Shown: positions 8,573 through 22,072, counted from the first letter of the stretch. The stretch: 64,000 nucleotides of DNA from Nitrosopumilus sp. (GCA_965238275.1 OZ250186.1:352001-416000); one strand, 5' to 3'. Numbers and translations are program-made. The notes: generated by a model not told the origin, from the sequence alone.

Positions 8573-10027
8573 TCAGCCCGGAATCAAATAAGAAGGAGCA
8601 TATCCTTTGGTCGAACCAAGATCCTCATAGATCTGCGCGCGCGGCATACGATCCCACAAGTGGCCCAGCAAGAGTATCGCGCCTTGCGGCCCTGCCAGGA
8701 AGAGGTGCATTTGGTCTGGCCTGTATTTCTGAACGAGTCGACGAATCGAGTCGCGTGTTTCATAAGCCCAGCCTCGGGCATCGGCGGCGTCGCCAATCGC
8801 GTGGTTGCTGGCACCATTTGCGGGACGGATGCAAACGTACTCCCCGACATTAATCTGCTTGTCGTGAATATATGCCAACACATCCGTCGACGGATCAACG
8901 GCCAAAGCGATACCCACAGCAAGATCTTTACCAAATCCCAGAGTCGTAGCGTCCTGCTTGATAGCAACATCAGACAACTCTCCTACAGAAGACCAAACCG
9001 TCTGACCCTGAAATGATGAAACCTGAAAGCCTGCGGTCTTGCTCAGCTCTATGCCTACGGCAAACCAAGTGGGCAAGCGCATGTACCCTCTGACTAGAAC
9101 GTGCGCGTGTCCCTGCGATCGTAATTTCTGTGCCGCCCCCCGGAGTTCTGATCGAAACCGGTCATTCCACAGTGCAGGATTTGACAGCAGACGTCTAACT
9201 CTCGGCTCGTTGCCTGGAAACGAGTCGACCCAGTCAAGGACAATAGTAGCGTTTTCCGGCATAGGGTCACGGTCAATTGCCTGTACAAGAATTGAAGCTG
9301 TCGGTGAATCGCCGGATTGCTTTAGCGGCTCAACCGCTAGCCTCAGCTTGGCAACGGTGATCTCCCTCTTACCCTCAGTTACCCAACCGCGTACGATTCC
9401 CATGCCTCGAGACACCGCATCCTCATCGTTGCGAAGGCCGACCGCAGCCATGAGTGGCCGCACCAACAGCGTCAAATCCTCCTCGGTTTTTCCAAGCATG
9501 AACCGGATGTCATGGAAAAACAGCACCGCTTCCTCCTCGTCGACCATGAGGTGCTCGGCAAGCATGCGGCGAACGTTGCCTTCTTTTGATCTGGGTTTTG
9601 CATATTGCAAGCGACGCGCGACGGTGCGATCACGGCCGTCTATCATGCCCAGCAACGGATCCGCAGCTTGTGGAAGGCGGTTGGTCACCAGAGTTATCTT
9701 GGGTTTGTGCCCGCTCTGGTTGCCTATCCATAGCTTGTGGAACCCTTGGATTATGCTTGGTCCGCCAACCCTGGAAGGCTTAGTGAGCCACTCCATTCCA
9801 GCAGCTTGGCTTGCATCTGCTGAAGACTTGAGTTGGTAGCATTCATATCCACCGTCTTCCATGTACACTGTGACATCATCGGCATTTCCCGCTTTAGGAT
9901 CCTCAATTCCAATTTTGGTTATGCCGCTACCTGCATTAATCGCCCTGATTACTTGAACCCAAGAGAACAGATGCTGATAGTCGTCGCCTCTGATTCGGGC
10001 GCCGCTGGCACTTAGTCCTGTGGTCAT
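8573..10027 (-). CDS. CBASS effector: PD-(D/E)xK-type endonuclease + SAVED domain (Cap4-like)
   Basis: N-terminal GDDYQ...IE...DDV...YQLK nuclease motif. C-terminal SAVED signature HLFLAGPQGAILLLGH. Last gene of the cyclase-HORMA-TRIP13 operon, with an ATGA overlap. Confidence 0.85.
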   Translation of the reverse strand: MTTGLSASGARIRGDDYQHLFSWVQVIRAINAGSGITKIGIEDPKAGNADDVTVYMEDGGYECYQLKSSADASQAAGMEWLTKPSRVGGPSIIQGFHKLWIGNQSGHKPKITLVTNRLPQAADPLLGMIDGRDRTVARRLQYAKPRSKEGNVRRMLAEHLMVDEEEAVLFFHDIRFMLGKTEEDLTLLVRPLMAAVGLRNDEDAVSRGMGIVRGWVTEGKREITVAKLRLAVEPLKQSGDSPTASILVQAIDRDPMPENATIVLDWVDSFPGNEPRVRRLLSNPALWNDRFRSELRGAAQKLRSQGHAHVLVRGYMRLPTWFAVGIELSKTAGFQVSSFQGQTVWSSVGELSDVAIKQDATTLGFGKDLAVGIALAVDPSTDVLAYIHDKQINVGEYVCIRPANGASNHAIGDAADARGWAYETRDSIRRLVQKYRPDQMHLFLAGPQGAILLLGHLWDRMPRAQIYEDLGSTKGYAPSYLIPG

Positions 10028-10962
10028 GGATTCTGTTTACCACCCATGGAGTCAAACGGTCGGGTCGGCTCCGTCCGGTCAAGCACCGATAAAGCAGTCT
10101 CAAAACTGACAGGTTCGTCCGGAAACGCCTCAAGGAGAAGATTGGGTATGAGGCGTTGGGCGATGTCTGAAAAGGAGTAGCCGTAGTCTTGGCATTTCCC
10201 ATCCGGGCCGGTCAGTCTAGCCAATTCACGGTATTGATCGTCGTTAAAGATGTCATCAAAGGCCCTACGGAACAACGCCTCCCTTTGTTCTGCATTTGGT
10301 CGTTTAAACTCATGGTGAACCGCTGCACGGCGCAGGACTGCCGGATCTAGTGACTTGTAGCGATTGGTGCAAAGTATCACCAAAACAGGCAAACGCTCTC
10401 GCGCAAGACGGTCTATGCCCCTAATCAGCGCGTTGACCCCCGCACGGTCCTCGTGGTGCATCTGCTCAGTATCCCGCGACTCTGCAAGTGCATCTGCCTC
10501 GTCGATCACGAAAACGACCGCCGAAGTGGGTTTACCATGTTGCTCAAATCCACGTCGAGCAGATTCTGCCACTTTGTCAAATGCCTGCGATATCAGGTGG
10601 GTCATCTGACCTACGGTTCCTTGCCCACGGGTAATGAGACTCAAACGCAGGAGAGTCACCTTGATGTCTTCCTCTCTGGCTATAGGACTGCCCAAGCTAT
10701 CCGCAAGTGTTGTCTTTCCCGTACCCACGTCTCCGGAAAACACCATCAGCGGTGAGCGTCGATAAAATTGCTCCACGCATGGCAGGACAGATCCGTGTTT
10801 TTCCTTACTCCATTGTTCTAGCAACTCCGGAACCAAGATAAGACGGGCTTCTTTTAGCAGGACGGCTTTTAGGCGATCCAGCCCAACAAGCATTTTGAAT
10901 TGACTATCTGCATCTACGTCTGGCATCTCTCTAACATCGTCGAACAGATCATGTGAGACCAT
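10024..10962 (-). CDS. cap6: CBASS TRIP13/Pch2-like AAA+ ATPase (Cap6)
   Basis: Walker A GDVGTGKT, Walker B FVIDEAD, QMHHEDRAGVNALI, LDPAVLRRAA. Lies next to HORMA. Confidence 0.9.
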   Translation of the reverse strand: MVSHDLFDDVREMPDVDADSQFKMLVGLDRLKAVLLKEARLILVPELLEQWSKEKHGSVLPCVEQFYRRSPLMVFSGDVGTGKTTLADSLGSPIAREEDIKVTLLRLSLITRGQGTVGQMTHLISQAFDKVAESARRGFEQHGKPTSAVVFVIDEADALAESRDTEQMHHEDRAGVNALIRGIDRLARERLPVLVILCTNRYKSLDPAVLRRAAVHHEFKRPNAEQREALFRRAFDDIFNDDQYRELARLTGPDGKCQDYGYSFSDIAQRLIPNLLLEAFPDEPVSFETALSVLDRTEPTRPFDSMGGKQNP

Positions 10963-10972
10963 ACAAAAACAC

Positions 10973-11476
10973 CTAGTAGGGACGGAACGTCTGTCGTTGG
11001 GTGCTAACGCCTTGTGAAGAGTAACTTCTGTCGGTCGCCCAGTATCCGTTACCGTTTTGTGGTTCTTGTCCGGGAGTGCGTTTGATGGGAATGCGTGCCT
11101 CGATCTGCTGTTTTTTTACATTTGGTAACGAGCCCCAATTCACGCTATGTGTCAGGAACGAAAACCACACTGAGTTAGAAACATCTGCGCGTGCAAAAAC
11201 GCTACCAGATTTTCCATCCTGTAACGAACCGTCCTGCCGAACTTCATAGCGCAGGGCAACAACTATCTGATCGTTTCGCTTGAACCCATATTCTACTCGT
11301 GCCAAGTAACCCCCGGCCAAAAGTTCGGTCAGCTCTTCATAGTAATCCCATATCAAGGATTCATCTGGTTGTCCGTAATAGGCTAGCATACCTCGGAGAT
11401 CTGCCATTACCTTAGAGGCAATATATTTCGCACCGGTTCTGGTAAACGTGGAACTTGTTGTAAATGTGTTAGTCAT
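10973..11476 (-). CDS. cap7: CBASS bacterial-type HORMA protein (Cap7)
   Basis: TFTxTxAxxIASKVxADL...YG.P...YxEELxxLLxxGYL..V.YGF..., C-terminal DRSYS. Closely resembles the recalled E. coli CdnC-associated HORMA. Confidence 0.9.
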   Translation of the reverse strand: MTNTFTTSSTFTRTGAKYIASKVMADLRGMLAYYGQPDESLIWDYYEELTELLAGGYLARVEYGFKRNDQIVVALRYEVRQDGSLQDGKSGSVFARADVSNSVWFSFLTHSVNWGSLPNVKKQQIEARIPIKRTPGQEPQNGNGYWATDRSYSSQGVSTQRQTFRPY

Positions 11477-11968
11477 GTCTCCCTAACCCCTGAAAGATGA
11501 CCCGAGAATGACTTGCCAAGATTCCACCGCCCTTTCCTTGGTGGTAGCATAAAAAGCCTCGCGTATGGCGTCCGCTGCCTCTTCTGCGGCCTCAACAAGC
11601 GCGGCACGATCATTAACTGAATACCGGTTGGTGACATTGTTATCAGCGTTGACTGGATCGAATACTTCGATGGCGGCTCCCGTAAGGCTTGGAAGGTCGC
11701 TAGGTGGGTAGCAGTCGCCGAATGCCACCCGTTCCTCAAGGTCGGTCTTTACTATGTAACTGAAGAATTTTTCAAGAATTCGCGGATAGTCATTCAATTC
11801 CATGCCAGAATAGAAGATATGCGTAATCCACCCATTTTGCCAACCCGGCCATAAAAAACCGGAAAAATACGGCCTAAAACTAGTCGTGTCTGGTATGTGG
11901 CAAGTCCGTTCACCCCAAAATCCAAAATGACGTGCGCAGCCTTGCAGCACTTCATCGTGCCCTGAATT

Positions 11969-13306
11969 CTACTTGACCGGAGCTTGGGAGCAGGCCCTGT
12001 CCCAGTCTACTGACGTCTTCCACTGCCCCGGTGGTGGCGGGCCCTTTTCCATGCAGTCCCACAAAAGGTTCAGGTTTACCAGCCCGGTGATCACGTTGAA
12101 CTCCCGGTTGAACTGCGCCGCGTTGCCGTCGTACGGGTCGGCAAGACGCGCGTAGCGCTTGAGCCTGCCTATGGCGTGCTCCACCAACACCCGGGTGGAG
12201 TTGATCCTGTGGTTGTGCTTTTTTTGCTCCGGCGTCAGCGGCGTGTCCCTGGTCTTCTTGTACGGGATCTCCGGCGTGGTGCCGGGCAGGTGGTCTGCGA
12301 TTCCCTGGTAGCCGCGGTCGACGAAGGGGTGGCACCTGTCTGATTCTGGCAGATCCGGATCGTGCATCGCCTCCTCCCACTTTCCAAACGGCATGGGGCG
12401 TTCCTTGAGCAGCGTGATGTCGCCGACTGACCCGACGGTGCTTTTTGATATGCCGATCACCACCCCGTCCCGGTTGGCGTACACGTTGGTATTGTTGGTG
12501 AACTTTTTCTTCTTGCCGGAGTATTTCATGCGCCGGACTGACTTTACAGACGGGCGCTGCACGGGGCAGTGCGTGCCGTCTATGAATATCTCGCCCCCGT
12601 CGGACCCGGGCACGATCTTCTTGAAATCCTCCTTGGTCGGGGCAGCAGCTACCTCCTCGGATATGTTGTCTGCCGTCGGAAGTATTCCTGCCAGCATCGC
12701 ATCCATCACCGGAATGTACCGGGACACGGTGGTCTGGTCTATCCCGAAGAATGCGGCAAGCACGCCTTGGGCGGGGTTGTCCTTTTTGCGGATAAGTGCT
12801 AGGAGCAGTGCGTGTCTCAGGTACAGTTTGCACCGGTTTCCGGGATCGGAGACCCGGGATGCGTTATCGCGGAACAGCGGCATCTGGCCCGAATGCGTCA
12901 GAAACACCTTGGCCCGCTCCAGCATGTACCGGAACTGTTCCCCGTCTGCCAGCGTGACATGGCGGAGCTTGTCCCCGTCGCGTATTATGCCGTCTAGCAC
13001 CTCTAGCAGGTGCAACGCTGGCCCCTTGCCGGGGTTCCAGCCATCGTTCCTGCTCTTCCACAGGCCGCGTTCAAGGCCCAACTCCCTGTCTTTCTGTTCC
13101 AGCTTTTTGTCTTTCTGCTTTAGAATATTTTTTAGGGTTTTGTCTTTCTGTTCCAGCTTTTTGTCTTTCTGTTCCAGCTTTTTGTCTTTCTGTTCCAGCT
13201 TTTTGTCTTTCTGTTCCAGCTTTTTGTCTTTCTGCTTTAGAATATTTTTTAGGCTTCTGTTTTCCTGTTCCAATCTGTGCATGATCTGATCAGGCGAGTC
13301 TGGCAT
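11969..13306 (-). CDS. IS5-family DDE transposase with N-terminal KDKKLEQ coiled-coil repeats
   Basis: IDGTHCPVQRP, YSGKKK, VDRGYQG, RVLVEHAIGRLKRY. Confidence 0.9.
   Translation of the reverse strand: MPDSPDQIMHRLEQENRSLKNILKQKDKKLEQKDKKLEQKDKKLEQKDKKLEQKDKTLKNILKQKDKKLEQKDRELGLERGLWKSRNDGWNPGKGPALHLLEVLDGIIRDGDKLRHVTLADGEQFRYMLERAKVFLTHSGQMPLFRDNASRVSDPGNRCKLYLRHALLLALIRKKDNPAQGVLAAFFGIDQTTVSRYIPVMDAMLAGILPTADNISEEVAAAPTKEDFKKIVPGSDGGEIFIDGTHCPVQRPSVKSVRRMKYSGKKKKFTNNTNVYANRDGVVIGISKSTVGSVGDITLLKERPMPFGKWEEAMHDPDLPESDRCHPFVDRGYQGIADHLPGTTPEIPYKKTRDTPLTPEQKKHNHRINSTRVLVEHAIGRLKRYARLADPYDGNAAQFNREFNVITGLVNLNLLWDCMEKGPPPPGQWKTSVDWDRACSQAPVK
13086..13251 (-). repeat. 21-bp tandem repeat encoding the KDKKLEQ heptad
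   Basis: TGTCTTTCTGTTCCAGCTTTT x4 in tandem, plus a duplicated LKNILKQKDKKLEQ block. Confidence 0.9.
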
Positions 13307-14315
13307 TTGATGTGAGACGCGATCGTGCCTGATCTAAATTTATCGATGTGAACAGGGGGATTACGCATATTTTCTAATCGGCCAAGTGGGCCACGAGTAG
13401 TTCCAATAAGAAGGACTTGCATTTGAATGCGGCGTTTTCATCTTTTCGTTGCTTGGCCCACCATTTGACCAAGCGCACAACTTGGGCAAAGTGCTGCGGG
13501 TTGGATGTCTTCCGAACACGGATAAACTTAAGGTGAAGCGGGATGCTGGTAAGGAGCCTCTCACCGGTATACTTGTCTATCAGATATCCATAGTCTTTCT
13601 CATCTCCCTCATAGATGACGGGAACAACATCTACATCCAGTCCGCTTCCTCGGAAATGAATTTTCACACAATGGGGGGAACTCGTATCAAAGTCGCTCGG
13701 ATCCTTTTGTGGGTACGCCTCGCGGAGGCGCTCCCCCACCCACGGCACCACGTCTTTTTCACTACCAGGAGTTTGATCCTTCTTTACATATACTGCGACA
13801 TCAAGGTCGTTGATGGTGCGCAGGGCGGTTCCTTTGGCAACGCTTCCGGCATGCAGCATTTTGACCAACCCGAACCCGGGGTTGTCCGCAATGTGCCGTT
13901 CAAGGATATCGCGGAGGCTGTTCACCTGTTCCCTGTATTTGTGCACGGAATCTTGCGGAAGATTAATTCGTTCTTCTGCGAAGGAAAGTATGTCCGCATG
14001 GGTTATGAATGAGTCTGTCATCTACACTCCTCTCATGCATATAGGATCTTAAGAATGATTCGCTCTAGAGTGTTGTGACGCAGTGCTGGACATATTGTTT
14101 CGCTCATTATCCAGCAAAATCAGGCATGAATTCAGGATAAAATGATCGAAACTTTTTGTCTCCTACTACGCATAATTAGCAAATTGCCAGACATGTCTCT
14201 AGGTAATCGGCTTGGAGGCCACCATCCTGCTCTTGGGCGCTGAACATGTAGTACGTCAGGTTCTGCATGAACCTGAAAGGCAGTCTAGAATGGAGCCCCC
14301 AATCGCCGGAACCGG

Positions 14316-15452
14316 TCATGACGATAAAGCCAGTTCTTTGATCAAATACACGTGTTCCAGCGGGGAGTTCTTGATCATCCTCCTGCTGATCAAGCCGCTA
14401 GGAATCTCCTCTAGGTACTCTTTTCTTCGCGTGCGTGCATCATCCACATCTACGCGTCCTAGCAAGTCCAGATTTCTCATGATGGCGTGCATGTACCCCG
14501 TCTCGTCAGTTCCTGAAGGCGACGGAGATCCCTCCAAGTGCCTTTGGAGGGACTTGGCAAAGAGGAGCATCAGCAACACATCGGTGATGTGGTTAGATTT
14601 TTTATAGGAATAAAGCCTAGAAAGATAGCTCCCCTGAAAGCCATTATAGTGGCTAAGCAGATCCGATGCGACAAGTGCGTTGGTGTCTAGCGGCAAGAAA
14701 CTGCCAAGCGATTGCACTATGCTGGAGATTATGTCGGATACCGTGTAAGGCGGGTCGCGCTTGAAGCGGCCTACCTTGAACCCTGTCAGTTTTTGATACG
14801 AGTCGTAGGCTATCGCGAGATCCTTCGGGTTGGCTTGCCGCAGCAGCGTGGCAATATCGTAGATCTGCTTGACGATCTCGGTACGGTTTTCGGCTTTGAT
14901 CCCCACCGTCCCGATCGCCAAGGACGTGATCTTGTCAGCTATCAAGGTGCCTCTTGACAGTATTGTCATATCCTGGAGTGTCCCAAAATCCAGTATCTGC
15001 GAACCGGCCCGGATACGCTGCGTGTCAAGGTGCAGGTCCGCGCCGCAGAATGCGTCCACCTTCACGCTCTCTTGCCTGCCCAAGCAGGAGTCGTACATTA
15101 TCCTGTATGAGACGAAATTCTCTATCGGAAGGGGTTTTCTGGGAATGATCTTACTACACCGAAGCCCGTCCACGCTGCCATTTATGTCGTTCATGACGCC
15201 TTCGATCTCATCTGCAGAATGGCTGCTGAGGACGTCGATGTCCTTGCTCATGCGTTGTACCATGAAGTTGGGTTGGTGAAACGGCATGCACATCCCGCCC
15301 CTCGTGGTGCAGTGAATCTCTTGGGTGATGTGCTTGTGTATTTCAAAACACATGATGAACTTCTCGACAAGCGGGTCGGCGGGAAACCCGTACTTTTCAG
15401 AAATTCCGAGGATCCTCTCCCTAGTGAGCATCTCCGAGTAGTATAGAGCCAA
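14316..15452 (-). CDS. AbiEii-like nucleotidyltransferase (type IV toxin family)
   Basis: RGGMC...RMSKDIDV, ADKITSL and EIVKQIYDIA motifs. Starts 3 nt after the stop of the upstream gene. Confidence 0.8.
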   Translation of the reverse strand: MALYYSEMLTRERILGISEKYGFPADPLVEKFIMCFEIHKHITQEIHCTTRGGMCMPFHQPNFMVQRMSKDIDVLSSHSADEIEGVMNDINGSVDGLRCSKIIPRKPLPIENFVSYRIMYDSCLGRQESVKVDAFCGADLHLDTQRIRAGSQILDFGTLQDMTILSRGTLIADKITSLAIGTVGIKAENRTEIVKQIYDIATLLRQANPKDLAIAYDSYQKLTGFKVGRFKRDPPYTVSDIISSIVQSLGSFLPLDTNALVASDLLSHYNGFQGSYLSRLYSYKKSNHITDVLLMLLFAKSLQRHLEGSPSPSGTDETGYMHAIMRNLDLLGRVDVDDARTRRKEYLEEIPSGLISRRMIKNSPLEHVYLIKELALSS

Positions 15453-15455
15453 AAC

Positions 15456-17327
15456 CTACTCCTCCGGGAGGTACTCCTCGATCTCGTTTAGGATTTGCCT
15501 GCGCCTGGCAAGCGACCGCAATTTTGCGGGTCTTGCCAAGCCGGCATCGAGCAGCTCGTCTAGCACGAGGATCAGATCGTCATGGTAAAGGGGAATCCTA
15601 TCCCGGGTAACCTCAAAGTAGAGGTCCAGCCAAGCCTTCTCCGGCCCGGCCCAAGCAAGGGAAAGCCTCTCCCTGTATTCGCGAATTACGATGAACTTGC
15701 TGTGCTCTGTCCCATACAGCACGGCTGCAAGATCCTGCCTGCTCGGGTTTAGCACGACTGTAAACCCTCCTGCATGATCCGATATGGCCTCAAGCAGGCT
15801 CTGGCCGGCTCCCGGCACCGTATGGATCGTGTATACGATCTTGCCGTGGGTGTTGTGCAGGAACGGCACCAGCGTGGAAAGGCCGGTAAACTGAAAGTCA
15901 TGCTCAAAGGTCTCCTTCAGGTAGTCGTGCAGCTCGACAAGGTCGTTTTGCAAGGAATATCCGGGGAGATGAACCGCCTTTTCCCTCGGGGCACTCTTAC
16001 CGGCATGCCGGGTGAGGCGATCCCTGACAAACTCGTTCAGCATCCTGTTCCTGCGCTCGATGAAGGAGCGGCGTGACGGATCCTCTGCGGCCAATTCGGC
16101 CTCTATGCGAATCAGCCCGACAAGGAACAGCGGGTTCTTGAACAGGTGGAACGCCGGGTTGTTCCTTCCGATGCCGACGCGAACCCCGTTATTTACGGTC
16201 TCGACATCGAAGGTGTCCGAATCGTTGAACTCAAAATCAAAGATTGCGTCCCCCTTCCGCTGGACGAATCTGCCGGCCTCTCGCAGCAGCAACTTTGTGT
16301 TCTCGGAGCTCATTCGGGTGTCCAGAGGCGGGAGGTTGGGGTTCGGGTCCAATGCCAGCACAGATTCAATGTCAGACATGCCCTCTTTCGGGGACGAGGC
16401 CTGCCGCATGATCATCTTCACGACGGCGTCGGCAATGAAGCCGGATGCTGCCTCGCGGTACTCCGGCGACTCGGTCAGGAAGCCGGTCTTGTGGAAGTTG
16501 ACCGGGACGTGATCCAGGGACAGCTCGCCTGCCACCCTTGCGGCATTGGGGTGGAGTTTTATTCCAAACTTGTCAAACGCACTGATCAGCCTTCCGTTGC
16601 GGTACAGGTGTATTCCGTAGTCGCCTTTTATGGAGCGCCTCGCAAGGAGCCCGACCCAGCCAGTCATCCTACCGCCGGCAGTCTCTATGCTTACCGGGTG
16701 CTTCGAGCCGTCCACCAGTTTGGGCAAAGAAGGCTTGCAGGGGCGGGAGTTGACCAGTATCCGAACCTGGCCGCGTTCGATGTACGGCCCGTATCTGATC
16801 CCAAACCTACGGCGGAAGTTTAGTATCTGGTTTGGGTATAACGGCACCTTGATTTTGCTTATCATTATCTGGGTTCCGCGCCAACCTCCTTCCCTGGCAA
16901 TCTTCTCGATTTCAAAGTTGGTCCAGTTTTTAGACGCGTCGTTAAGCCATAGATCCTCGTCGTACCTTGCAGTAAACATAAAACTCGATCCCGGTACCGT
17001 GGTGCGTATGGTAAAGGCCTTTCCAAGGCTCGAGCACGCGCTCTTCAGGCCGAGCCCGAACTGTCCCAGCTTGCCTTTCTTTGTTTCCTTGGCAACAGTC
17101 AGCGCTTCCCTGAGCCCCTCAGAGTCCATCCCGCATCCGTCGTCGGACACCTCAATCTGCCCCAACCTAAAGTGCAAGATGACGCTGATCGTCCCCGTAT
17201 CGTCAAGCCGTGCGTCGATGGCGTTGTCTATCAACTCTGCCACCGCCTGCTCTGTCCTGTATCCGACCAGGCCGAGCTTCTTGATCAGGCTCTTGTCAGG
17301 CGTTATGTCGACTGTTATCTTTGCCAT
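15456..17327 (-). CDS. MORC-type GHKL ATPase fused to a C-terminal AbiEi-like (antitoxin) domain
   Basis: GHKL motifs AELIDNAIDA, DDGCGMD, GQFGLGLKSA, GTQI. S5-like GIHLYRNGRLI...PVNFHKTGF. C-terminal VVLNPS...FIVIRE...GPEKAWLDLY. ATG 17327 (alternative GTG 17336). Confidence 0.75.
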   Translation of the reverse strand: MAKITVDITPDKSLIKKLGLVGYRTEQAVAELIDNAIDARLDDTGTISVILHFRLGQIEVSDDGCGMDSEGLREALTVAKETKKGKLGQFGLGLKSACSSLGKAFTIRTTVPGSSFMFTARYDEDLWLNDASKNWTNFEIEKIAREGGWRGTQIMISKIKVPLYPNQILNFRRRFGIRYGPYIERGQVRILVNSRPCKPSLPKLVDGSKHPVSIETAGGRMTGWVGLLARRSIKGDYGIHLYRNGRLISAFDKFGIKLHPNAARVAGELSLDHVPVNFHKTGFLTESPEYREAASGFIADAVVKMIMRQASSPKEGMSDIESVLALDPNPNLPPLDTRMSSENTKLLLREAGRFVQRKGDAIFDFEFNDSDTFDVETVNNGVRVGIGRNNPAFHLFKNPLFLVGLIRIEAELAAEDPSRRSFIERRNRMLNEFVRDRLTRHAGKSAPREKAVHLPGYSLQNDLVELHDYLKETFEHDFQFTGLSTLVPFLHNTHGKIVYTIHTVPGAGQSLLEAISDHAGGFTVVLNPSRQDLAAVLYGTEHSKFIVIREYRERLSLAWAGPEKAWLDLYFEVTRDRIPLYHDDLILVLDELLDAGLARPAKLRSLARRRQILNEIEEYLPEE

Positions 17328-17485
17328 GCTGATCACTACGTGTTAATATAATATATATTCACAGCTTTTGATCAATCACTATGCAAACGTGGCTGGTTTT
17401 CGTTGGCAAGGACTGCCACCGCCGGCATGTGTGGGCACTCAATCTTGGCGTATGGTGGAACATTTACGTTTGCGGCCAAAAACTG

Positions 17486-17573
17486 CAAAATTATCAGATT
17501 ATCAAAATTTATAAGATTTGCAAAATTTATAAGATTTGCAAAATTTATAAGATTTGCAAAATTATAAGATTCG
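17486..17573. repeat. 18-bp quasi-palindromic tandem repeat
   Basis: CAAAATTTATAAGATTTG x3 perfect copies (17503-17556) plus a degenerate copy on each side. Confidence 0.9.
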
Positions 17574-17713
17574 ATTCGATGTTATATCCTGCAAAATGCG
17601 CCATAGTCTGTTACGGGTGATCCAAGTATGCAAGAATTCTGTACAAAACTGACAAAACCTACTGCACGCATATGCTCGTGACATGATAGTGACAAGGAAA
17701 TCACACATGCGTA

Positions 17714-19188
17714 GTAATCGGATTAAAGATCCGGAAAAAAGAAGATTCATCCAATTGGTTAAATCGATACACAAAGATCCTAGTAGAGCCAGACATCTTC
17801 ATGAACCGAGCCAGACATGTAAAACGTGGGGACGAGTTCCTCCGGGATGTCAGCCTATCTGAACTTGAACAGATACGCAGTGAGGAACCTCACGGTAAGG
17901 CCAAAGCCATGCTACAGGCGGCCATACACCGAAAGAAAGGCGAGACCCCGGATGCCATATCAAAGGCCATCGGGGTGGCAACCAGCACCATACATGACTG
18001 GTTGCTGCGGCTGGAGGAAGGCGGCTTGGAGCGCAGGCACGACTGCAAGAGTCCCGGCAGGCCGTGTCGCCTGTCCGACGCACAGAAGGAATCCCTTGAC
18101 GGGGATATCGCCAAGGAGCCCATGGCAAGCGGCTTTTTCCGCGGCACGTGGACGGCCAGACTCGTCGGCCGCCGCATTCTAAACGCGTTTGGGATCCGGT
18201 ACAGCGACAGCGGTGCGCTCAAGCTGACGCGCAGGATGAACTTTTCAGTCAGGGGAGTTCGGCCCGTGCCGTACAACTCGGCCACGGCCGAGGATCTGGC
18301 CGAATACGTGGAGGAGACGATCCGGCAGGCAAGGGAGCATGACAGGAACGGCTACAAGGTAGCGTTCATTGATTTTGCCGGATTTGCCGACTCTCCGGCC
18401 TCCAAGCGCGGCATACGGCGCAGGGGCGGCAGGGACACAGTCAAGACCAACTGCTCCAAAAAGACAGTCAAGGTAACAGGGGCCTTGGGCAAGAGCACGC
18501 TGGACATACAGTTCCACGAGTCTGCCAACACTGAAAGCGTGGCTGCACTTTTGGAATACCTTCGACGGAAGTATGGAAAGATCTACGCGATCATGGACAA
18601 CGCCGGAGCCCACACCAGCAAGGACATGGAGCGGTACGTTGAAGGTACGAAAGGCGACGTGGTTCGGTGGTTTCTGCCCCCGCGCACGCCGCAGCACAAT
18701 CCCATCGAGGTGGAGTGGAGGGAGCTCAAGAGGGCGCTATCTGCAACCTTCTTTGGCGGATTCGACGAACTGCAGAAGAGAATCAGGCAGCTGCTGCGCA
18801 GCAGGGAGGTCGCCATAGTGAGGCTGATCGATTACGTGTTCGAGGCCATCGGCCCACAGAAGGGGCCATGGCAGAAGGCGCGGCGCATACCCGTGGAACC
18901 GCCTTCCTGCACTGCCTGACATGCATGTAATGCGCGAAGAACAGTTCCGTACCAGGATATCTTGCATCCAGGCCGCCGTCGCCTGCGTCTGCTGCAAACC
19001 TTGCAGTGTCCTGCCTTTCACGCCTTAAACAGAAGATTCCGCGGGATCCGATTCCTGAAATTATCAGACGGGCCATCCTGCTCCCGAGACATGATGCGAT
19101 GCCGATGCCGTCATGCTCATTGGAGTGCCACAATCTGCCATAGATCCAAATCCCATGGGCAGTTTTTCCGAATCTTTAATCCGATTAC
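17714..19188 (+). mobile_element. IS630-family insertion sequence
   Basis: TIR GTAATCGGATTAAAGATCCGGAAAAA / TTTTTCCGAATCTTTAATCCGATTAC (25/26), flanked by TA on both sides. Confidence 0.88.
17801..18919 (+). CDS. IS630-family transposase
   Basis: HTH, GRPCRL, WT, IMDNAGAH, FLPPRTPQHNPIEVEW. Confidence 0.9.
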   Translation: MNRARHVKRGDEFLRDVSLSELEQIRSEEPHGKAKAMLQAAIHRKKGETPDAISKAIGVATSTIHDWLLRLEEGGLERRHDCKSPGRPCRLSDAQKESLDGDIAKEPMASGFFRGTWTARLVGRRILNAFGIRYSDSGALKLTRRMNFSVRGVRPVPYNSATAEDLAEYVEETIRQAREHDRNGYKVAFIDFAGFADSPASKRGIRRRGGRDTVKTNCSKKTVKVTGALGKSTLDIQFHESANTESVAALLEYLRRKYGKIYAIMDNAGAHTSKDMERYVEGTKGDVVRWFLPPRTPQHNPIEVEWRELKRALSATFFGGFDELQKRIRQLLRSREVAIVRLIDYVFEAIGPQKGPWQKARRIPVEPPSCTA

Positions 19189-19701: not shown

Positions 19702-19773
19702 AACCATGCGACTAGCTGCATGGTAATTTCAGCCGATCAATTGCTTTTTATGTCATTTTGTGGTACATGGTGC

Positions 19774-20160
19774 ATGTTAGAAGGCAGCACGAATCTAACG
19801 GTTGATGCAAAAGCACATGTCAACATGAAGCGTAACTATCCGGATGAATCCGACGAACATGTGATAGCCAGACTTCTGAGCAACGTTCCCGGCGGGCAGG
19901 CCGTAACCAGGAAACGACTTGACGAGATCAGTGAAGGAACTGCGGAGGCGGGGTTGCACATACTGTGCAACGAGCTTGCAAAGATACGAAAATATCCGGA
20001 CGAGTCATACGGGTCTATCGTGGACAGGATAATACGTCTTGACAAGGAAGAGGACGTTATGACAAGCGAGGATTTGAGGGACATTGAGGAAAGCCTTGCA
20101 GATGCAAGGAACACGCACCCTGCCAGAACAATACACGAGGCACCGACTTCTAGCAGATAG
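19774..20160 (+). CDS. Putative antitoxin with a duplicated YPDES-containing DNA-binding module
   Basis: KRNYPDESDEHVIARLL and KIRKYPDESYGSIVDRII, followed by an acidic tail EDLRDIEESLAD. Lies directly upstream of a RelE-like gene. Confidence 0.6.
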   Translation: MLEGSTNLTVDAKAHVNMKRNYPDESDEHVIARLLSNVPGGQAVTRKRLDEISEGTAEAGLHILCNELAKIRKYPDESYGSIVDRIIRLDKEEDVMTSEDLRDIEESLADARNTHPARTIHEAPTSSR

Positions 20161-20224: not shown

Positions 20225-20479
20225 ATGGCTTGGAAACTCGCATGGTTGCCGAGGGCCGAAAGGGAGTTGGAGAAACTGGATCCCGAAATTCAACGGCGCA
20301 TCCGCGACAAGATCGGCGATTGCATTGACAATCCGCATCATTACGCGACACGCCTTACCAATCTTCCGTATTACCGGGTGCGTGTGGGAAAATATCGCAT
20401 AATCTTAGACCTGGACGAGAATATCCGGACAGTCGTGGTCATGAAAATAGATCACAGGGGCAGGGTTTATGACAGATGA
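20225..20479 (+). CDS. relE: RelE/ParE-family type II toxin
   Basis: 84 aa: AERELEKLD...YRVRVGKYRII...IDHRGRVY. Confidence 0.88.
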   Translation: MAWKLAWLPRAERELEKLDPEIQRRIRDKIGDCIDNPHHYATRLTNLPYYRVRVGKYRIILDLDENIRTVVVMKIDHRGRVYDR

Positions 20480-20718: not shown

Positions 20719-22072
20719 AACTCTGTTTCCTAATTATCGCCAGTCACACCCAACAGGTTCAGAATTAGGCCAGATCAGTTGAATTTGAACATAATATCAA
20801 ACATCTTCAATAGAAAACCGTATTGATCAGAGAGGTGTGCAGACAGTCAGGTTATCGCCATGACTGAAAACACATCCTCTCCAGACAAAACGGGCACGCA
20901 TGAGGCTAAAAAATCTTTCAAATCCAAAGAACGCCGGTTCCAGTACGATGACCGCAGGTACATAGACCGCGGCCAGTTGTGGACGCTCCAGATAAGCCCG
21001 GAGATCCTGACTCAGGGAGTCGAGAAGCTAAACTGCGGGAAGGTAGGCCGCCCGTACGTATTTTCAAACGCGTGCTTTGCAGCAGCATCCCTGTTCAAAA
21101 ACGCCACCGGCATAAGGTACAGGCAGCTCCAGGGTCTGGCAGAGACGATAGTCGGCAAGGAAAACGCGCCCACGTACTCGGCGTTCCAGAAGAGGATGGC
21201 CAAGCTTGGCTGCACTGTTGCAGACAATGATGATGGTAGCGGCACGGCTTCTGCGTGGTTCTCAGACGGCGGCACCCGGGCCGAGATCAAGCTGTTTGCC
21301 TTCGACTCCACTGGACTCAAGCCCACAAGCCGCGGCGACTGGATGACAGAAAAGTGGGGGACCAGGCGGGGCTTCATAAAGCTGCACGTCGGGGTGGATG
21401 CCAAAACCAAAAAGATCTACGCCGTGGCCATAACCGACGACAAGTGCGGGGACTCTCCGCAGTTTGAGGAACTGGTGGGGCAGGCCCTTGCAAATGCAAA
21501 AAAATCACCAAACTCAGACACTTCTGCAGGCACCAAGGCGGCAGCCGACGGCGCGTACGACGCCCAGAAGATCCGCAGGTACTGCGACGAGCAGGGAATC
21601 GAGCCGCTGATTCCCGTCCGCATCGACTTTGCCGGAAAGGCGAACGGGTGCATGCCCCGCAAGGAGGCAGGATTCAGGCAGCTGGGGGACCTGGACTGCA
21701 TGGACAAGACGGCAGAACGCAAGTTTGCAGGCCTCACGCGCGAACAAAAGAGGGAATTCCAGAAGGCGTGGCGCAGGGAGTCAGGGTACAACGACCGGTG
21801 GTCAGTCGAGATTGTATTTTCCACGTTCAAGCGGGTGTTGGGCGAGTGCATAAGCGCGCGCAAGTGGGAGAACGTCAAGGCCGAGATATACGGAAAGGTG
21901 CAGCTGTACAACCAGATGATCGATACTGCAATCGACAACGGGTACGGCACGCCAAGGATCGTGCAAGCCTACAAGCCCGGCCCAAGGACTGCAAGGGAAG
22001 GGGGCAAGACGACGACGTAGGCAGAATTGCACAGACGAGTATCTGTGTCGAGCGTAATTAGGAAACAGAGTT
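20719..22072 (+). mobile_element. IS5-family insertion sequence
   Basis: Perfect 18-bp TIR AACTCTGTTTCCTAATTA / TAATTAGGAAACAGAGTT. 8-bp TSD GGTTGGCA at 20711-20718 and 22073-22080. Confidence 0.92.
20860..22020 (+). CDS. IS5-family DDE transposase (IS903/ISH1-like)
   Basis: FDSTGLK, FIKLHVGVD, ADGAYD, GYNDRWSVEIVFSTFKR. Confidence 0.9.
   Translation: MTENTSSPDKTGTHEAKKSFKSKERRFQYDDRRYIDRGQLWTLQISPEILTQGVEKLNCGKVGRPYVFSNACFAAASLFKNATGIRYRQLQGLAETIVGKENAPTYSAFQKRMAKLGCTVADNDDGSGTASAWFSDGGTRAEIKLFAFDSTGLKPTSRGDWMTEKWGTRRGFIKLHVGVDAKTKKIYAVAITDDKCGDSPQFEELVGQALANAKKSPNSDTSAGTKAAADGAYDAQKIRRYCDEQGIEPLIPVRIDFAGKANGCMPRKEAGFRQLGDLDCMDKTAERKFAGLTREQKREFQKAWRRESGYNDRWSVEIVFSTFKRVLGECISARKWENVKAEIYGKVQLYNQMIDTAIDNGYGTPRIVQAYKPGPRTAREGGKTTT

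Follow-up and report, generated by a model that had tools for sequence, protein, structure and literature searches.

A 64,000-nucleotide (nt) stretch of the Nitrosopumilus sp. genome (GCA_965238275.1 OZ250186.1:352001-416000, hereafter the window) carries two adjacent genes that almost certainly encode a GHKL ATPase of the MORC type joined to an AbiEi-type antitoxin domain and, beside it, an AbiEii nucleotidyltransferase (NTase) toxin. With coordinates counted within the window, the two genes are:

15456-17327, minus strand: gene 1, predicted MORC-type GHKL ATPase with an AbiEi-type antitoxin domain; 623 amino acids (aa) from the ATG at 17327, the open reading frame (ORF) being open from a GTG at 17336 (626 aa)
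14316-15452, minus strand: gene 2, predicted AbiEii/DUF1814 nucleotidyltransferase toxin; 378 aa, TTG start

Both genes are intact. The gene 1 ORF spans 15456-17336 and ends with a TAG stop at 15456-15458, leaving a gap of 3 nt to the start of gene 2 at 15452, which confirms the two-gene operon proposed in a preliminary description of this DNA. A database search returned 392 homologues of gene 1, and an identical 623-aa entry (P0003) fits the ATG start at 17327; residue numbers of gene 1 given below count from the GTG at 17336. The gene pair is not a chance arrangement, because the same two-gene order recurs in 38 of 47 related loci.

The identity of the gene 1 C-terminal domain (CTD) is central to this reading.

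15459-15968, minus strand: CTD, AbiEi-type (DUF6577-type) antitoxin domain; residues 457-626, ~170 aa, lacking a winged helix-turn-helix (wHTH); delimited by an AlphaFold2 (AF2) model, structure search and hhalign

The strings VVLNPSRQDL, FIVIRE and GPEKAWLDLY are all present in the C-terminus of gene 1, and from them the preliminary description had suggested a DUF6577-type AbiEi domain. The suggestion proved right when judged by the CTDs of orthologues, by a family of stand-alone proteins and by the AbiEi structure 6y8q_A, with the window CTD alone staying below threshold. Homologues of gene 1 at 46-58% identity match Pfam DUF6577 over positions ~35-200 of 204 with E-values of 1e-5 to 2e-8, and across 36 orthologous CTDs (the window and 35 loci) the family was matched by 19 at E ≤0.01 (best E 6e-10). 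An HMMER search of 1.84 billion representative proteins with a profile of these 36 CTDs found 286 at E ≤0.001. Many of these stand alone, with lengths of ~230-310 aa, and were matched from residue ~60-100 onward. In a sample of 62 stand-alone proteins DUF6577 was present in 57, and 17 also contained the AbiEi_4 wHTH. Aligning the CTD with the stand-alone family by hhalign gave a probability of 99.96% and an E-value of 3.6e-39, with 31% identity over 164 columns. The PADLOC AbiEi models matched both stand-alone proteins that were scanned, from loci L079 (E 1.2e-34, full length) and L090 (E 7.2e-14).

In this alignment CTD positions 13-179 correspond to stand-alone positions 72-237, which lie beyond the wHTH. 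No helix-turn-helix family was matched in gene 1 by Pfam, the 455 residues before the CTD consisting of GHKL, S5 and middle domains and a linker. The proposal that an ATPase stands in place of the antitoxin wHTH is thus borne out.

The AF2 model of the CTD has a mean predicted local distance difference test (pLDDT) score of 87.8. Its best structural match among 48,161 PDB chains was 6y8q_A, the AbiEi protein of Streptococcus agalactiae, over residues 57-193, its C-terminal domain (root mean square deviation 3.5, 121 residues aligned); the Z-score of 7.5 lies within the range typical for the best score of models without a clear match, and we count it because it agrees with the sequence evidence. 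Behind AbiEi came nucleotidyltransferase folds at Z 5.8-4.6 and Rv2827c at Z 3.8. The toxins MenT1, MenT4 and TglT were also among the structural matches (Z 3.7-5.8). Judging from these matches, antitoxin domains of the AbiEi type may be degenerate versions of an NTase-like fold and thus relatives of the toxin they accompany.

Several results speak against the domain assignment. AbiEi led the structure search by Z, but Foldseek with the CTD model found nothing in the PDB at E ≤0.001 (Rv2827c ranked 19th, E 0.74). The window CTD alone and longer C-terminal pieces matched no CTD family in Pfam at E ≤10 and the window CTD no PADLOC model at E up to 0.001, and the CTD profile had zero matches to PDB sequences. 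At the sequence level the assignment is carried by profiles of orthologues rather than by the window CTD itself. A word-based search for short proteins containing the CTD region returned only 12 fragments of the same family. Taken together, four independent lines identify the CTD as an AbiEi-type antitoxin domain by homology, and we consider it likely that it acts as the antitoxin moiety.

Gene 2 is a member of the AbiEii family by both Pfam (PF08843, E 1.3e-11; 45.3 bits, cut-off 22.5) and the PADLOC AbiEii model (E 5.6e-18). An alignment of 24 homologues defined two motif regions:

15234-15299, minus strand: NTase core of gene 2, G52-G53 and R67-x-S69-x-D71-x-D73
14856-14936, minus strand: gene 2 motifs D173-K174 and K195-Q-x-x-D199

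The AbiEii motifs listed beforehand (GG, RxSxDID, DK and KQIYD) were all located. Residues G52, G53, R67, S69, D71, D73, K174, K195 and D199 are invariant in 24/24 homologues, and D173 and Q196 are at least 90% conserved. The GG pair, the DxD carboxylates, DK and KxxxD are what we take to be the four catalytic motifs of AbiEii toxins. Searching PDB sequences with gene 2 alone or with a gene 2 profile gave no matches in either case. The spacing of R67-M-S69 equals that of R63/T65 in S. agalactiae AbiEii, a correspondence mapped by motif and not by alignment, and the sequence makes S69 a candidate phospho-acceptor. According to a preprint on the S. agalactiae system, AbiEi binds AbiEii, with D85 and E155 forming salt bridges to toxin R63 and D85 contacting T65; binding induces auto-phosphorylation of T65, which abolishes NTase activity, and the AbiEi loop D85/E86/I87 is essential. 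A 2024 MenAT paper describes the same auto-phosphorylation logic for MenT1 and MenT3.

The remainder of gene 1 is divided into four parts:

16842-17327, minus strand: GHKL (Bergerat-fold) ATPase domain, residues ~1-165; HATPase_c_3 match, invariant motifs, and MORC4, MORC3 and MORC2 as best PDB sequence matches
16392-16835, minus strand: S5-fold transducer domain, residues ~168-315, with invariant K283 (NFHKTGF); Morc6_S5 match, second MORC4/MORC3 stretch, predicted secondary structure and Foldseek
16017-16307, minus strand: middle domain, residues ~344-440, a helix, four strands and two long helices in the AF2 secondary structure
15969-16010, minus strand: flexible linker, residues 443-456, pLDDT <50, variable in length and sequence in the alignment

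Gene 1 matched Pfam HATPase_c_3 with E 5.6e-18 and no other Pfam family above threshold. All four GHKL motifs claimed for it were found, and in 28 full-length homologues of 45-85% identity the motif residues E34/N38/D41, D65/G69, G91/G94/G96/K98 and G154/T155 are invariant, as is the S5 block N280-F281-x-K283-T284-G285-F286. Because these GHKL and S5 residues do not vary, the enzyme looks catalytically competent as far as motifs can tell. The Morc6_S5 match of the window protein is weak and falls short of the cut-off (E 0.005); eight homologues gave E-values from 7e-6 to 0.028, and one of the eight passed the cut-off. The S5-like domain proposed to follow the GHKL domain is nevertheless upheld by the invariant K283 and by Foldseek, which aligned 370-425 columns of the full-length model with MORC2, MORC4 and the N-terminal domain of MutL.

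The closest sequence relatives of known structure are MORC4, MORC3 and MORC2, found with E 5e-8 by the single sequence and with E 2.4e-15 to 8e-9 by the profile, which matched two stretches each in MORC4 and MORC3; PMS1 (8e-5), HtpG (1e-4), MutL and the topoisomerases rank behind them. In Foldseek searches with the full-length model, Hsp90/TRAP1, MORC2, MORC4, MORC3, the MutL N-terminal domain and SMCHD1 were matched by the first ~400 residues and were tied at E ~1e-13. Fold alone therefore cannot separate MORC from the other GHKL+S5 clades, and it is the sequence profile that favours MORC. The full-length AlphaFold model (pLDDT 76.4, predicted template modelling score 0.44) consists of four domains and a low-confidence linker. 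The middle domain matched no Pfam family, the sole match at E ≤10 in pieces of gene 1 being Morc6_S5.

Two known ATPase families were considered and rejected. Membership of MzaB (Menshen/MZA) is contradicted by a score of 44.1 bits against the NCBIfam cut-off of 850, with residues 18-142 covering 124/500 positions; the PADLOC MzaB model likewise matched the N-terminal 120 residues of gene 1 (E 1.7e-9). Matches to the Tiamat protein TmtA (E 0.0017-0.0023) are restricted to residues 32-112, which hold the Bergerat motifs. A Pfam scan of gene 1 found no match to a nuclease or DUF3684/TPR family.

The same fusion is found well beyond the window. A scan for ATPase loci, using one genome per species, kept 80 hits in 78 loci from 359 stretches confirmed by tblastn, and the loci were classed with hidden Markov models (HMMs) built from our own alignments. 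The full fusion with a whole CTD was present in 47 of the 78; three loci in which gene 1 is cut or truncated (L022, L023 and L042) were not counted among the 47. The hosts were Nitrosopumilaceae, Cenarchaeum, Nitrosopumilus, a Nitrososphaera metagenome-assembled genome (MAG), an unclassified archaeon (L050) and a MAG labelled Dehalococcoidia (L002). A gene 2 homologue starts no more than 300 nt past the gene 1 stop in 38 of the 47, matching at least 250 HMM positions in 30, and the spacing of the two genes ranges from 3 nt to overlapping. The coupling of the fusion to AbiEii that had been claimed for the window is thus conserved. Within the family to which the window belongs, the CTD profile matched 27 of 301 sampled genomes (its own included) in 9 of 27 genera, with up to six matches per genome, nearly all of them within open frames of 620-700 aa. 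The distribution of the fusion is patchy and sometimes multi-copy. A fusion peculiar to this assembly is ruled out by the 47 loci and the 27 genomes.

Some of these loci have individual histories. The L002 contig (CBDCTF010000004.1, 46 kb) holds a complete fusion and toxin, with 61% identity to gene 1 and ~48% to gene 2; given that the MAG is labelled Dehalococcoidia, either the pair was transferred horizontally from Nitrosopumilaceae or the contig was wrongly binned. In L004 and L030 an insertion of ~1.4 kb splits the toxin gene, and in L032 and L044 the main copy is preceded, at a distance of a few kb, by a second, partial fusion copy with a toxin gene after it. Across these four loci the module has been duplicated in tandem and has decayed.

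When metagenomes were scanned with the stand-alone wHTH+DUF6577 family, 80 loci were found. Where at least 300 nt of sequence followed the antitoxin gene (69 stand-alone loci), the next gene matched the HMM of the ATPase-linked toxin in 65, with E-values down to 9e-68 and often over its full length; collapsing identical antitoxin C-termini gave 56 of 59. Three stand-alone loci were found in the phylum of the window, and AbiEii lay downstream in two of them (L079 and L085; not L080). Across that phylum Pfam DUF6577 occurs as a stand-alone protein in just 2 of 201 genomes (G032 and G162), and 62 genomes from the class to which G032 belongs added no other. Fused and stand-alone systems thus have the antitoxin domain and the toxin subfamily in common and differ in what precedes the antitoxin domain. 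A quick maximum-likelihood tree was built from 36 fused and 62 stand-alone domains; on it, two changes account for the label 'fused', against a mean of 29 after shuffling, which fits one or very few fusion events as far as this tree indicates.

The Nitrosopumilus genome contains two further AbiEii genes (~294 aa; L088, G000:C1:1699208-1702897, and L089, G000:C1:60847-64404). Upstream of each is a gene for a 257-aa protein with a TrmB/MarR-like wHTH, a second and different type of AbiEii antitoxin in this genome. This TrmB-like partner is unrelated to the CTD by hhalign (probability 2.7%).

The ATPase core also occurs without the CTD. In 28 loci (L051-L078), whose hosts are Patescibacteria, DPANN archaea and bacteria of several further groups, relatives of the core lack both the CTD and a gene 2 homologue. 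Most of these proteins are ~490-550 aa long; that of L068 has 908 aa with a fused protease and that of L072 ends at a contig edge. They match the GHKL and S5 domains, and in most of them the match extends into the middle domain (HMM positions ~350-460, reaching up to ~460), which the shorter relatives thus share. Their flanks were annotated from selected same-strand ORFs (82 references, mostly from 123 flanking ORFs), with the following neighbours:

immediately downstream in L063, L065, L071 and L076: ThsB-type TIR gene
immediately downstream in L053 and L058: trypsin-like peptidase gene
immediately downstream in L062 and L059: ClpP or SDH-type protease gene; a protease is fused to the ATPase in L068
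immediately downstream in L056 and farther downstream in L070: Shedu SduA_C nuclease gene
immediately downstream in L069: GIY-YIG gene
immediately downstream in L075 and L074: SMODS/CBASS cyclase gene
upstream in L052 and L064: genes for a type ISP restriction enzyme and a PC4-like protein
upstream in L051 and L056: N6_N4 DNA methylase gene

In many of the CTD-less loci the downstream gene, among the selected ORFs scanned, matched no family. PADLOC matched the CTD-less core proteins only to the first ~120 positions of MzaB. A single ATPase core whose effector genes are exchanged from locus to locus is what marks defence families built from a sensor and an effector, and GHKL domains offer published precedents in the VcSduA GHKL-Shedu fusion, in Shedu proteins with GHKL-type N-terminal domains and in Tiamat-like proteins. 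The CTD-less core may be such a modular family that current models do not cover. We put forward as a tentative proposal, with rather less than an even chance of being correct, that the GHKL+S5+middle core defines an undescribed family of effector-swapping defence ATPases, found in Patescibacteria (CPR), DPANN archaea, other bacteria and Nitrosopumilaceae with AbiEii among its partners, of which an archaeal branch captured an antitoxin domain as its effector adaptor, so that an ATP-driven clamp would decide whether a tRNA-modifying toxin stays auto-phosphorylated and inactive. If this is true, it would show one way in which toxin-antitoxin pairs become immune modules under the control of a sensor.

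For the system in the window, we give slightly better than even odds to the complete chain of an AbiE-type module in which the antitoxin lost its N-terminal wHTH, its remaining domain became tethered behind a MORC-type GHKL+S5 ATPase, and the ATPase gates the toxin. By analogy with S. agalactiae AbiE and MenAT, the CTD would bind the AbiEii toxin, induce auto-phosphorylation of S69 and keep the toxin inactive. Unphosphorylated toxin, if it behaves as its homologues do, would extend tRNAs by nucleotides at their 3' ends, bringing translation to a halt. The general mechanism of GHKL proteins and the effector-swapping relatives suggest that the ATPase core would serve as both sensor and switch. 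An infection cue, such as foreign DNA or a viral protein, could be recognised by the clamp or the middle domain and lead to ATP-driven dimerisation of the N-terminal domains. Dimerisation would then withdraw or occlude the tethered CTD, allowing newly made or dephosphorylated toxin to act and resulting in abortive infection. The control of the toxin by ATP is inferred.

A number of observations weigh against ATPase-gated defence. According to the preprint, S. agalactiae AbiE expressed in Escherichia coli protected against 0 of 32 phages, and a defence role of AbiE is not general. No toxin gene is adjacent in 9 of the 47 fused loci (L007, L010, L018, L020, L032, L035, L044, L046 and L049), and in eight others the toxin is partial, split or frameshifted: insertions split the gene in L004 and L030, fragments of it are found in L005, L014 and L017, the match is partial in L026 and L028, and in L034 the gene is in pieces. 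The ATPase-CTD protein can thus persist without a toxin. That antitoxin genes outlive decayed toxin genes would, on the other hand, be what a toxin-antitoxin relationship predicts. Among the short relatives, the neighbour in L075 is a complete CBASS cyclase (E 7.5e-126), and some of the genes downstream of these proteins may belong to separate systems. The island around the window pair may be decaying, given that its own CBASS cyclase appears to be interrupted by an insertion sequence (IS) element.

The alternative that survives best, although we hold it to be unlikely, is a plain addiction or stress toxin-antitoxin pair that senses no invader. The CTD would neutralise the toxin constitutively, and the MORC part would replace the wHTH as the DNA-binding, autoregulatory element or would stabilise or dimerise the antitoxin. 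In canonical AbiEi proteins the wHTH serves DNA binding and autoregulation, and AbiEi_4 is annotated as 'Transcriptional regulator'; MORC2 has been solved bound to DNA (9cdh and 9cdj). Selfish toxin-antitoxin modules typically occur in several copies of which some have decayed, as is the case here, and the absence of phage protection by S. agalactiae AbiE in E. coli points the same way. However, a conserved ~450-aa ATPase with intact motifs would be a costly swap for a wHTH of ~70 aa. The core adjoins TIR, protease and Shedu effectors in other phyla, where there is no antitoxin logic, and the locus itself lies in a defence island beside CBASS.

A less probable scheme casts the CTD as an adaptor or activator. 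It would recruit the nucleotidyltransferase to a target captured by the MORC part, for example foreign nucleic acid, and the substrate would be something other than host tRNA. The long flexible linker suits tethered recruitment, the partners of the short relatives are effectors that need activation and not neutralisation, and the nine loci without a toxin keep the ATPase-CTD protein all the same. Yet the CTD and toxin families work as antitoxin and toxin in stand-alone pairs, and the invariant candidate phospho-acceptor motif points to the published inhibitory mechanism.

The GHKL superfamily also includes protein kinases, such as the anti-sigma factor kinases, and the ATP-binding motifs of gene 1 are intact. 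The GHKL domain might then itself phosphorylate S69 of the toxin, with the CTD acting only as a dock; the equivalent toxin residue is reported to be phospho-regulated in AbiE and MenAT. We consider this quite improbable: gene 1 is of the MutL/MORC type, in which an S5 domain with a catalytic lysine is the hallmark of an ATPase and not of a kinase, and stand-alone antitoxins suffice without a kinase domain since, by the same reports, the toxin phosphorylates itself. Finally, that the genes are unrelated neighbours and the ATPase serves chromosome or DNA metabolism might be argued from the nine loci lacking a toxin, in one of which (L007) the downstream gene encodes a methyltransferase, but is very hard to reconcile with adjacency in 38 of 47 loci at spacings from 3 nt to overlapping, with the homology of the CTD to the cognate antitoxin of exactly the toxin subfamily of gene 2, and with a patchy, multi-copy distribution unlike that of a housekeeping gene.

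The gene pair sits between IS elements in a mobile, defence-rich stretch of a 2.2-Mb genome assembled as one contig. Directly downstream is a type III CBASS operon (8573-14021, minus strand):

8573-10027, minus strand: SAVED-PD-(D/E)xK effector
10024-10962, minus strand: TRIP13
10973-11476, minus strand: bacterial HORMA
11969-13306: IS5-like DDE_Tnp_4 transposase gene, between the cyclase fragment and HORMA
13374-14021, minus strand: CD-NTase (cyclase), ending at 215 aa and covering positions 4-217 of the 325-position PADLOC model

From this layout the cyclase gene appears to be interrupted by the IS element, and the ORF at 11483-11950 may hold the rest of it. On the other side of the gene pair, genes for an IS630-like transposase (DDE_3 with a helix-turn-helix, 17801-18919) and a DDE_Tnp_1 transposase (20860-22020) flank a ParE-family toxin gene (20225-20479, 84 aa); the ORF upstream of the latter (19720-20160, 146 aa) has no Pfam match and could be the ParE antitoxin.

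Between gene 1 and the nearest transposase gene, inspection by eye showed an 18-nt AT-rich unit (TTTTGCAAATCTTATAAA-like) repeated about four times in tandem at ~17500-17575, which is ~170-250 nt upstream of gene 1. One more element was read from the sequence closer to the gene:

17344-17359, minus strand: AT-rich box AATATATATTATATTA, 17-32 nt 5' of the gene 1 ATG

This box is a possible archaeal TATA element, in which case the transcript would be leaderless.

In the current picture, AbiE and MenAT toxins are kept off through auto-phosphorylation brought about by the antitoxin. The fusion is a natural system in which toxin release may be under direct enzymatic control and which could be dissected with point mutants; the class of ATPase fused here to an antitoxin domain is one that closes around DNA or client proteins. 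The architecture suggests a cell-suicide switch run by an ATPase instead of a simple repressor. It joins two fields, that of GHKL/MORC immune sensors (GHKL-Shedu, Tiamat, and the MORCs of plants and animals) and that of nucleotidyltransferase toxin-antitoxin systems, and it provides a candidate antiviral module for the ammonia-oxidising archaea, whose defence systems have been little studied experimentally.

The preliminary description had not recognised the arrangement as a described system. This view stands: PADLOC-DB v2.0.0 has no model for it and no such architecture was found in the literature searched, supplementary tables apart. PADLOC-DB v2.0.0 calls the toxin here but no AbiE system; its AbiEii model is matched, whereas neither gene 1 (E up to 0.01) nor the CTD (E up to 0.001) matches an AbiEi model. 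A search of full-text literature found neither a fusion of GHKL or MORC with AbiEi nor any naming of DUF6577, although the supplementary neighbourhood tables of the MORC (Iyer 2008), Shedu and Tiamat studies could list the architecture. A term search of the main text of Iyer 2008, its supplement apart, found no nucleotidyltransferase, toxin or DUF1814 partner of MORC.

The closest known systems include the stand-alone wHTH+DUF6577 AbiEi pairs (PADLOC AbiE; for example L079, L085 and L090-L169), with a homologous antitoxin domain, the same toxin subfamily and gene order, and tight spacing. Their antitoxins are ~230-310 aa long with an N-terminal wHTH, whereas here ~455 aa of GHKL, S5 and middle domains and linker take its place. 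The AbiE systems of Lactococcus lactis and S. agalactiae (type IV, with type VII proposed) share the fold of the antitoxin C-terminal domain, the DUF1814 NTase, the R-x-[S/T] motif and an antitoxin gene upstream of the toxin gene. In contrast to these, the window system has no wHTH, a fused ATPase and an archaeal host, and no sequence similarity to the solved proteins is detectable. MenAT3 and MenAT4 of Mycobacterium tuberculosis, whose MenA3 and MenA4 are AbiEi-like, have a toxin of the same superfamily and, by extension from the published work, would share the auto-phosphorylation logic; structural similarity is weak (Rv2827c, Z 3.8), the subfamilies are others and there is no ATPase.

On the ATPase side, prokaryotic MORC and paraMORC proteins from restriction-modification contexts (Iyer, Abhiman and Aravind 2008) and MzaB resemble gene 1 in combining GHKL with S5, and some short relatives of gene 1 adjoin type ISP enzymes or methylases (L051, L052, L056 and L064). 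The Tiamat and Tiamat-like GHL ATPases, as reported, resemble the window system in swapping C-terminal effector or recognition domains or, in some cases, in taking an effector from a neighbouring gene. Tiamat itself carries DUF3684/TPR and a PD-(D/E)xK nuclease, neither of which was detected here, and the similarity to TmtA is weak and covers the Bergerat motifs only. GHKL-type N-terminal domains are known from Shedu. In GHKL-Shedu (Vibrio cholerae VcSduA, type I-D Shedu) a GHKL ATPase and middle domain are proposed to control a defence effector, and in L056 a relative of the gene 1 core is immediately followed by a Shedu gene that is separate from it. The effector of GHKL-Shedu is a fused PD-(D/E)xK nuclease, whereas in the system described here a separate nucleotidyltransferase toxin would be reached through a fused antitoxin domain.

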